Program-made: the position numbers and the translations under genes
The notes under the pieces: generated by a model
Seen by the model: only the letters and a program-made list of their open reading frames with translations
Told to the model about the DNA's origin: nothing
Databases searched by the model: none
Shown here: positions 1,684-2,343 of the stretch, one piece after another
Layout: the number at the start of each line of letters is the position of its first letter
How positions within the stretch are numbered: position 1 is the first letter of the stretch
Source of the DNA: a virus
Direction: 5' to 3' (one strand)
UHGV virus genome: UHGV-1461890
Length of the DNA stretch: 41,432 nucleotides

Positions 1684-2137
1684 ACTAACCGATAGCGAGA
1701 TTGTAAAGGCTATGGAGATATTTGTTAATAGCGTAGGTAAAGGTTTTGTTTTTGCTAATGTTGATATAAAAAAAGACGAAATAAACGAGTTTAAACATAT
1801 CGACTTGTCTTATGATGAAATTTTTGACCTAATCAACCGCCTACAAGCAAAGAACTCAAATTTGACTTCTGATTTAACTTCTTTACAAAACGATTTAACT
1901 TCTTTGCAAAATGATTTGACTTCTTTAAAGGCAGAGAATGAGAGGTTGAAAAAGTCAAATGAAATGTTTACCGATATCGGCAAAATGTATAGTGAAATCA
2001 AAGCCGAAGCATACAAAGATATATTAAACTTCTTGGAATGCAGGTTTGTTTGTAAAGGAAAATTAACTGCTTTTGGATATGAGTCAGCAATAATAGATAT
2101 TAAAAATCACTTAAAAGAATTGGTGGGTGAGGAGTAA
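1673..2137 (+). CDS. hypothetical coiled-coil protein with heptad tandem repeats
   Basis: Internal ATG at 1673 of track ORF 1559..2137 preferred (GGAAG SD upstream, overlaps upstream stop). Protein has DLTSLQN x3 coded by a 21-nt tandem repeat. Confidence 0.5.
   Translation: MPNKLTDSEIVKAMEIFVNSVGKGFVFANVDIKKDEINEFKHIDLSYDEIFDLINRLQAKNSNLTSDLTSLQNDLTSLQNDLTSLKAENERLKKSNEMFTDIGKMYSEIKAEAYKDILNFLECRFVCKGKLTAFGYESAIIDIKNHLKELVGEE
1871..1933 (+). repeat. in-frame 21-nt tandem repeat x3 (GATTTAACTTCTTTRCAAAAY), heptad DLTSLQN
   Basis: Direct reading of three near-identical consecutive 21-nt units plus a partial upstream copy. Confidence 0.8.
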
Positions 2138-2343
2138 TGCAATATTATGTGATAAAGGACAAAAACACAGGCTTATATTTTCGTGGTAAAGGTGTAAATC
2201 GTTGGGGGAAACATCTTAATCAAGCAAGTATATATCGTGTGAAAGGAATGGCAGAGCATACCCTTAAAGAACTATCTTGGCGAGGGGAACAAGGGGTTAT
2301 AGTGCATATAAAAGTCATAGAATTGGTGGGTGAGGATAAATGA
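2137..2343 (+). CDS. hypothetical protein
   Basis: ORF track; start overlaps upstream stop (TAATG); strong SD GGTGGGTGAGGAG upstream. Confidence 0.45.
   Translation: MQYYVIKDKNTGLYFRGKGVNRWGKHLNQASIYRVKGMAEHTLKELSWRGEQGVIVHIKVIELVGEDK

Follow-up and report, generated by a model that had tools for sequence, protein, structure and literature searches.

UHGV-1461890 is the circularly permuted genome of a temperate phage, with a size of 41.4 kb and a G+C content of 38.5%, and the whole stretch of 41,432 nucleotides (nt) is referred to as the window in the following. Between the replication/recombination module and the terminase genes of this phage, a region of tightly packed small open reading frames (ORFs) is located, in which short repeated sequences, termed cassettes here, were identified at the boundaries of consecutive genes. 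A first-pass annotation of the window had assigned these repeats to an early region; the small-ORF region between the two modules is a better description of their location, and by its position it presumably corresponds to the nin region of lambdoid phages. No function was assigned by Pfam and PHROGs to the genes X, Y, Z, A, B and C of this region.

Gene-junction cassettes of the small-ORF region

Three types of cassettes were distinguished, all of which consist of a Shine-Dalgarno (SD) site, a spacer and an overlapping stop and start codon. T1, with the sequence GGAGTGATACCGAATGACCGATA, provides the upstream protein with the tail ..SDTE before its stop codon and lets the next protein start with MTD.., T2 (CTTAAAAGAATTGGTGGGTGA..) is read as an upstream tail ..KELVGE/D.., and T3 (AAGGAGCGTGAGGGGTAATGAA) as the upstream tail ..KEREG. 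In the window, T1 and T2 are present in two copies each and T3 in one, with no more copies of any type at up to 3 mismatches. By these five cassettes, the stretch 505-2343 is split into four units, consisting of gene Y, of gene Z with the gene 1193-1486, of the gene 1486-1683 with gene A, and of gene B (Table 1). In T1 copy 2, the first codons of gene Z (M-T-D) are part of the conserved block.

The repeats listed in the first-pass annotation were all recovered at the positions given there. The 17-mer GAATTGGTGGGTGAGGA is present in exactly two copies, 2117-2133 and 2320-2336, both on the plus strand, and both copies are read in frame as E-L-V-G-E at stop/start overlaps. The true identity of the two copies comprises 18 nt (AGAATTGG..), and 24 of 27 positions match in total (direct-repeat family D10); no further copy was detected in the window at up to 3 mismatches, and none of 100 dinucleotide shuffles gave two matches. 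The 14-mer GTGATACCGAATGA also occurs exactly twice, at 505-518 and 792-805, each time translated as D-T-E-stop and with ATGA as the overlap. Within 41 kb, the repetition of a 14-mer is unremarkable when taken alone, the window containing at least 60 direct-repeat families; it is its position and its recurrence in other genomes which mark it as non-random. The sequence GTGAGGGGTAATG is present at 1476-1488 as described, while its proposed relation to the 17-mer was not borne out: it belongs to the separate cassette T3, and only SD-like G-rich bases are common to both.

Table 1. Cassettes and genes of the window; empty cells indicate that no entry is available.
Feature	Position	Strand	Description
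T1 copy 1	502-520	+	Variant tAGGTGATACCGAATGAac; SD AGGTGAT; gene Y ATG 515-517, gene X TGA 516-518
T1 copy 2	789-811	+	aGAGTGATACCGAATGACCGATA; gene Z ATG 802-804, gene Y TGA 803-805
T3	1468-1490	+	AAGGAGCGTGAGGGGTAATGAA; ..KEREG stop, TAATG overlap; joins gene 1193-1486 to gene 1486-1683
T2 copy 1	2110-2139	+	Gene A tail CTTAAAAGAATTGGTGGGTGAGGAGTAATG, ..LKELVGEE stop; SD for gene B; TAA 2135-2137, ATG 2137-2139 (TAATG)
T2 copy 2	2316-2343	+	Gene B tail CATAGAATTGGTGGGTGAGGATAAATGA, ..IELVGEDK stop; SD for gene C; ATG 2340-2342, TGA 2341-2343 (ATGA)
Tightly packed small ORFs	across window ends into 1-3289
Gene X	..-518		Crosses window ends; stop TGA 516-518
Gene Y	515-805	+	96 aa, no known family; T1 on both sides
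Gene Z	802-1200		Starts M-T-D
Unnamed small gene	1193-1486
Unnamed small gene	1486-1683
Gene A	1673-2137	+	154 aa, coiled coil
Gene B	2137-2343	+	68 aa, no known family; T2 on both sides
Gene C	2340-2660	+	106 aa
Gene D	2663-2899
DUF1064/Holliday-junction-resolvase-like gene	2906-3289
Terminase genes	from 3398		After small-ORF region
Serine integrase	32111-33607		Only site-specific recombinase in window, 30 kb from cassettes
CI-like repressor	35204-35626
YqaJ-like exonuclease	36561-37496	+	Pfam YqaJ, 6.8e-32
RecT single-strand annealing protein	37511-38353	+	Pfam RecT, 3.1e-58
SSB	39036-39470		Recombination/replication module

The two copies of the 17-mer had also been suggested to supply the SD sequence of the next gene, and this agrees with the SD-like bases which precede the next ATG at each cassette copy and with the predicted anti-SD pairing. 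Scored against a generic Firmicute anti-SD sequence instead of the host's own 16S 3' end, the T1 junctions take the first two places among 39 genes, with -18.3 kcal/mol for copy 1 and -15.5 kcal/mol for copy 2. The T2 junctions reach -12.3 and -12.2 kcal/mol, and their predicted duplex is separated from the ATG by about 5 nt. No significant RNA structure was found around the cassette copies (z -1.3 to +0.8), no RNA family in Rfam matched them, and promoter- or terminator-like sites were detected at none of the cassettes, their counts in 1-3450 being at or below shuffle expectation. It is plausible from these predictions that the cassettes are regions of translation initiation which lie within the end of the preceding gene. 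A pairing of the T1 spacer with 16S beyond the anti-SD was also considered and was dropped as unsupported; a Chi-like role of the TGGTGG contained in the 17-mer was another idea considered.

In four of the comparison loci (numbered with the prefix L; here L104, L105, L109 and L114), T1 is additionally present between genes as a simple ribosome-binding site, and no more than 5-20 codons are open upstream of it. In L109, the homologue of gene Y is terminated within GGAGTGA owing to a 1-nt indel. The intergenic copies and this change of frame identify the SDTE tail as a by-product of read-through rather than a protein motif.

Recurrence of the cassettes and mosaic breakpoints in related phages

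The cassettes were found to recur exactly at junctions between unrelated genes in dozens of viral and metagenome contigs, including those of IMG/VR, and in contigs of Acutalibacteraceae metagenome-assembled genomes (MAGs). The 14-mer of T1 is present in exact form in 10 of 76 loci fetched for other reasons, compared to roughly 0.005 expected by our estimate, and the 16-mer GAGTGATACCGAATGA was found in 30 IMG/VR contigs. The 20-mer GAGTGATACCGAATGACCGA is contained in 15 species genomes of GTDB, with about 1 expected by chance; these comprise 11 Acutalibacteraceae MAGs together with Ructibacterium, Ruminococcus, an unclassified Clostridia bacterium and one Bathyarchaeia MAG. Taken from the MAG bins of these 20-mer matches, the hosts point to a phage group of gut Clostridia. 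In a search of INPHARED phage DNA with window positions 1-3400 as the query, no match was obtained.

The consensus of T1 is (A/T)GGAGTGATACCGAATGACCGATA, consisting of the SD sequence, the spacer ACCGA, the ATG and the codons ACC GAT. Both the spacer and these two codons are invariant across about 50 occurrences. The unit of GGAGTGAT, the 5-nt spacer ACCGA and the ATG precedes at least 15 families of downstream genes and joins many unrelated gene pairs, and for T1 copy 2 exact stretches of 20-26 nt are common to the window and L010, L016, L017, L037, L057, L060 and L070. When the flanks of 43 non-redundant T1 occurrences were compared in pairs, neither side was shared in 866 pairs, the upstream side only in 17, the downstream side only in 17, and both in 3. 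Between the window and L109, gene Y is homologous (84% identical) up to T1 and nothing beyond it, a different gene following there; between the window and L016 or L107, nothing is common before T1 and gene Z is homologous after it. Homology stops or starts at T1 likewise in the pairs L103/L115, L017/L070 and L057/L112. T3 has been identified five times (in the window, L016, L057, L070 and L114), and both the upstream and the downstream protein differ in each of the five cases.

In three unrelated viral contigs, L081, L093 and L097, T1 precedes a protein of 640-650 amino acids (aa), and the unit TACCGAATGA is duplicated there as GATACCGAATGAGTTACCGAATGAAAAC; the cassette thus occurs outside the phage group analysed. 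A further junction was observed in L067, L070, L017, L060 and L114 and at 1673-1683 of the window, with upstream tails of the form ..N(D/A)R (ADNDR, ENNDR, GENDAR and EQNAQ) that arise from overlaps of 8-11 nt with starts like ATGACAGATAG (MTDR..). This looks like a fourth cassette type.

For T2, the origin of the sequence can be traced to the gene A family. This family is widespread and shows four conserved blocks, MTDxEIIKALEC, DLINRLQAENERL, KAEAYKEFAERLKE and the C-terminal (D)NLLKE[LM]VGE[EDKN].., the last of which identifies T2 copy 1 as the family's own tail. Nucleotide islands including this tail are conserved in the family, and the gene content 3' of A is highly variable, with at least 13 different genes following. 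T2 copy 1 has exact stretches of 21-24 nt in common with L001, L010, L016 and L037. In an exact scan of IMG/VR, the 17-mer was found in nine contigs, in three of which, the related phages L001, L005 and L007, it ends a gene before the next ATG. The matches in L002, L003/L006, L004 and L008 lie inside or beside unrelated ORFs and were discarded as chance, as were most of the 36 matches of the 16-mer WAGAATTGGTGGGTGA, which are internal to long ORFs.

Gene B has 160 homologues and is found with different neighbours. The core of this family ends with ..VPIQIIE, and beyond it the tails vary among 120 homologues (LVGEDK, FEGDNK, MAGDNNDE, MVGDTE, GEEV, LDSET, or a fusion to another domain), which shows that the ELVGED tail of B does not belong to the B family. 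The sequence GAATTGGTGGGTGAGGATAAATGA at the 3' end of gene B in the window also ends an A-family gene in L109, and the B tail of L010, ELVGEDNESKN, matches the A tail ELVGRDNASKN of L111. As read from these alignments, the tail of B is a copy of an A-type tail, and T2 as a whole is the C-terminal tail of the A family copied onto B and other proteins; an ELVG[ED] tail was found in at least eight proteins outside the A family. Gene C is preceded in relatives by an ..LVGE-type tail, which is that of B, that of a 58-aa gene in L017 or, in L111, that of A with no gene in between.

The breakpoints of gene gain and loss which the first-pass annotation had proposed to look for at these boundaries in related genomes were found, in the one-sided flanks of T1 described above, in the module of gene B and in an empty site. 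Gene B is 90-97% identical on the aa level (about 90-95% on the nt level) in L010, L014, L016 and L017, whereas its neighbours A and C are only 30-43% identical. In nucleotide alignments, the homology of B begins abruptly at the A-tail box CTTAAAAGAATTGGTGGGTGA and ends abruptly at the B tail ..GGTGAGGATAA(A)TGA. To judge from these comparisons, gene B resembles a mosaic module that was exchanged recently. Between L016 and L017, the identity is about 99% over the stretch comprising the A-tail box, B and the following gene, and it is lost about 40 nt before the stop codon of that following gene, where L017 switches to a tail ..NLVGENE followed by a C homologue. L111 contains an A-family gene and a C homologue with nothing but a single cassette between them, compared to the order A-cassette-B-cassette-C in L010 and in the window. 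This junction is an exact composite, with the upstream side matching the left copy and the downstream side the right copy of L010, and it represents an empty site as would be expected from an insertion of B at the two copies or from its deletion between them. The A tail without B was also seen in L001, L005, L037 and L103-L115 in addition to L111, and these are potential recipient sites.

For the flank pairs of 35 gene-end occurrences of T2, the upstream side only was shared in 88 (A genes), the downstream side only in 2, and both in 5. In the complete data set, seven different single genes were found bracketed by two cassette copies of the same type. Traits of integron attC sites or of transposons were not seen at the cassettes: there is no fold, and the inserts are single ORFs of 68-98 aa to which no function is assigned. 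Exact look-ups of the window proteins A and C returned only one near-identical contig and a 707-nt fragment (L020-L022), and the comparisons for recent indels were made without very close variants of the window phage. When gene A and the small terminase were used singly as protein queries for loci in IMG/VR, nothing was confirmed, and the same holds for a B-family profile run against the GTDB species genomes; no homologue of gene X was present in any locus compared.

Many homologues of B (P0009-P0054) contain, as an in-frame fusion, the domain ..ADVVEVVRCKDC...CSYGERKE, known in the window from the C-terminal half of gene 1193-1486, and others are fused to zinc-ribbon or coiled-coil segments; the shuffling of small domains thus extends to gene fusions. 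In gene A, a 21-nt tandem repeat GATTTAACTTCTTTACAAAAC, coding for DLTSLQN heptads, is located at 1860-1930 in the coiled coil, and the sequence at this site is unrelated in relatives.

Origin and role of the cassettes

Whether phage mosaicism arises by homologous exchange at short boundary sequences, or by random illegitimate joints followed by selection, has been a question for decades, and to our knowledge conserved boundaries are absent from most phage groups. The uncultured phage group described here shows them unusually clearly, with three reusable types in dozens of unrelated contexts, breakpoints at nucleotide resolution, an empty site and its own RecT/YqaJ. As a clear natural case, it makes the question of mosaicism directly testable. 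The cassettes further explain why unrelated small phage proteins have identical tails (SDTE, ELVGE and KEREG) and identical N-termini (MTD), common ends which can mislead homology clustering and domain annotation. The idea of boundary sequences is itself old; what is added is a clear new example and an unusually clean natural data set.

The reading that we favour, with a probability of roughly 0.65, is that the cassettes are identical by descent, act as translation-initiation sites and offer short homology for the insertion and deletion of genes. They would form a small repertoire of standard gene-junction units of about 20-35 nt, with a strong SD sequence, a fixed spacer and an overlapping stop and start codon, by which the downstream gene would be translationally coupled to the upstream gene. 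An upstream frame running through the cassette acquires the stereotyped tail (..SDTE, ..ELVGE/D.. or ..KEREG), and T1 in addition fixes the MTD of the next gene. The copies would have arisen by descent and not by convergence, no other economical account being available for spacers and codons that do not vary, and they sit at joints where the gene content of relatives differs. The direct-repeat pairs around Y and B may be footprints of the insertion of a single gene at a cassette, and may likewise be substrates for its precise deletion. T2 probably began as the C-terminal tail of the A family, the junction between A and its next gene having then been joined to the 3' end of B. Exchange would proceed by homologous pairing within the cassettes and would be catalysed by the RecT, YqaJ and SSB proteins of the phage.

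The proposal of the first-pass annotation that the boundaries can act as short homology for module shuffling is supported by the breakpoints at the cassettes and by the empty site; its causal part, that cassette homology itself brings about the exchanges, we infer, the alternative being that the cassettes are no more than markers of the places at which exchanges remain viable. The causal role is favoured because a cassette is present at recipient sites lacking the module, because single genes are bracketed by direct repeats, and because RecT, YqaJ and SSB are encoded by the phage. For Red-beta-type recombinases, which tolerate divergence, the minimal efficient pairing segment is 23-27 bp, compared to 31-34 bp for RecA (PMC3945230), and the fuller cassettes measure 22-35 nt.

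Several points weigh against this reading. The exact identities in the window comprise 14-18 nt (23-35 nt for the fuller consensus), which is at or below this published minimal length for pairing, and recombination would therefore be rare. The tails of A are conserved as protein motifs, and the alignments would look no different after a crossover immediately beside the cassette, so that the position of a breakpoint alone is no proof that pairing took place inside it. Islands of 17-53 nt with exact nucleotide identity are also common to relatives inside genes, at conserved motifs of A (1679-1711, 1824-1849, 1931-1953 and 1995-2019) and of Z (916-947 and 1132-1184), in phages in which the identity of the A and Z proteins is only 30-45% elsewhere; one of these islands, the 20-mer AAAGCCGAAGCATACAAAGA (KAEAYKE), is present in exact form in 16 IMG/VR contigs. 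The islands suggest sub-genic mosaicism, in which variable segments may be swapped between constant blocks, and show that such conservation is not restricted to boundaries. Finally, several loci were retrieved using the cassette sequences, and the data set is biased by this ascertainment; other criteria had served to fetch the key cases, namely L016, L017, L010 and L014 for T1 and T2, and L102-L116 for T2.

Comparable sequences have been described for several phage systems. In lambdoid phages, conserved boundary or linker sequences between modules were recognized in the modular theory of Susskind and Botstein and in the analysis of HK620 (both as cited in PMC3029335), and there, as in the phages described here, a short conserved sequence is located at gene boundaries and the transitions between homology and non-homology coincide with it. 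The nearest single precedent is mycobacteriophage Island3, in which gene 68 is an ORFan insert whose C-terminal 18 residues (about 50 bp) are also present in gene 67 upstream of it, and for which a relative without the insert exists (PMC3029335); gp67 and gp68 show the same architecture as A and B. Compared to both systems, the repeats identified here are shorter (17-35 nt), at least three standard types are reused over dozens of gene pairs in many genomes, and the cassettes are initiation and overlap units which are translated into stereotyped tails.

In T4-type phages, promoter(early) stem-loop elements (PeSLs) of about 100 bp, which are intergenic and consist of an early sigma-70 promoter and a stem-loop terminator, are repeated as regulatory cassettes flanking small ORFans in hyperplastic regions, where they bound indels, and recombination between flanking copies was proposed to excise or insert single-gene units, with mini-circles as the circular products of excision (PMC2839356, PMC4122927). 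Single genes bracketed by two copies and an empty site with one copy (L111) are common to both systems, while the cassettes described here are ribosome-binding sites with stop/start overlaps of 20-35 nt inside a polycistronic unit and contain no promoter, terminator or hairpin. The start-associated sequences (SAS) of Cluster K mycobacteriophages are asymmetric short repeats located a few bases (3-8 bp) upstream of the ATG of different gene families in the non-structural part of the genome, with an SD core, conserved positions which are not explained by 16S pairing, and sometimes the upstream stop codon inside; their 13-bp consensus GGGATAGGAGCCC is present in about 10-19 copies per genome, about half of them with 17-bp inverted repeats (PMC3203893). 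T1 resembles SAS in its position before the ATGs of unrelated genes and in the conservation extending beyond the SD sequence, but the sequence is unrelated (GGAGTGATACCGAATG compared to the SAS consensus), and far fewer copies are present. SAS have not been linked with mosaic joints; for the cassettes described here, the association with breakpoints is the dominant signal.

Illegitimate recombination followed by selection is the prevailing model for mosaic phage genomes (PMC3029335). Applied to the small-ORF region, it would imply that joints form at random, that survivors keep both genes and a working ribosome-binding site, and that the homology of the cassettes is not causal, the cassette travelling as the initiation region of the downstream gene or as the tail of the upstream gene. 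This would accommodate breakpoints that lie near the cassette and not in it, like the one about 40 nt before the stop codon of the gene after B in L016/L017, and the differing bases between GGTGA and ATG among B-carrying phages. It leaves unexplained why the same 20-23 nt, including spacer and first codons, are found at at least 15 unrelated downstream families and in many upstream contexts, why seven single genes are bracketed by cassettes of the same type, and why the empty site of L111 is an exact left/right composite, and we regard it as an unlikely account of the cassettes. The conservation of the spacer ACCGA and of positions +4 to +10 exceeds what 16S pairing requires, an argument also made for SAS (PMC3203893), and T1 precedes unrelated genes in non-structural regions, so that the cassettes might instead be cis-regulatory elements for a trans-acting factor, such as a translational repressor or activator or a small RNA, in parallel to a proposal made for SAS, with only a secondary link to the mosaic joints. 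With two, two and one copies per genome compared to about 10-19 for SAS, no diverged copies in the window at up to 3 mismatches, no significant RNA structure or Rfam match, and a T2 sequence that is clearly a coding motif of the A family, this appears improbable.

A constraint on the protein level would treat ELVGE and DTE as functional C-terminal motifs; related versions see the repeats as the unavoidable translation of a strong SD sequence, or A/B and X/Y as tandem paralogues. The A-family tail (D)NLLKE[LM]VGE is kept despite differences in the codons (GTT/GTG, ATG/TTG) and is probably a real protein motif in this family, and GGTGA in frame encodes G-[DE]. For B, X and Y such a constraint is largely refuted: the tails of the B family vary freely after the ..IIE core, SDTE is lost by a change of frame in L109 and is absent at the intergenic copies of T1, and neither A and B nor X and Y have anything in common beyond the cassette. 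With TTG accounting for 12% of the Leu codons and GTG for 17% of the Val codons of the genome, a second ELVGE with the same five codons has a probability of about 0.002, and the explanation as a whole is judged to be very improbable. Beyond the exchange at cassettes favoured here, a homology-driven system of gene cassettes can be envisaged, in which RecT/YqaJ would release single small genes, bracketed by cassettes of about 20-25 nt, in the form of circles or would acquire them from co-infecting phages or from prophages. Such a system would resemble integrons without a site-specific recombinase, each cassette combining a recombination site with translational coupling and possibly with the binding site of a shared regulator; we consider this extension doubtful.

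Further features of the phage genome

An 18-nt tandem repeat CTGGCGATGGCTCTGGCT.., coding for GSGSGD repeats, is located at both window ends, 1-65 and 41368-41432. The same repeat at both ends and gene X spanning them identify the contig as a circularly permuted assembly. The assembly is broken inside this repeat and is probably collapsed there, the number of repeats being uncertain.

In the tail region, a single ORF of 3782 aa (15917-27265) is unusually large for a 41-kb phage. Within the preceding gene 14720-15901, a 49-nt repeat (..GCAGACCAACAATGGCAGG..) occurs three times at distances of 75-87 nt, at 15383-15593. The sequence TAGGGGGGGTTTAG is present exactly twice in the window, at 3328-3341 and 27274-27287, and none of 100 shuffles contained two copies. 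Both copies are intergenic, one being located before the small terminase gene and the other just after the 3782-aa ORF, and the site at 3328-3341 is conserved in L014/L015. This sequence may be a late-transcription or regulatory motif.

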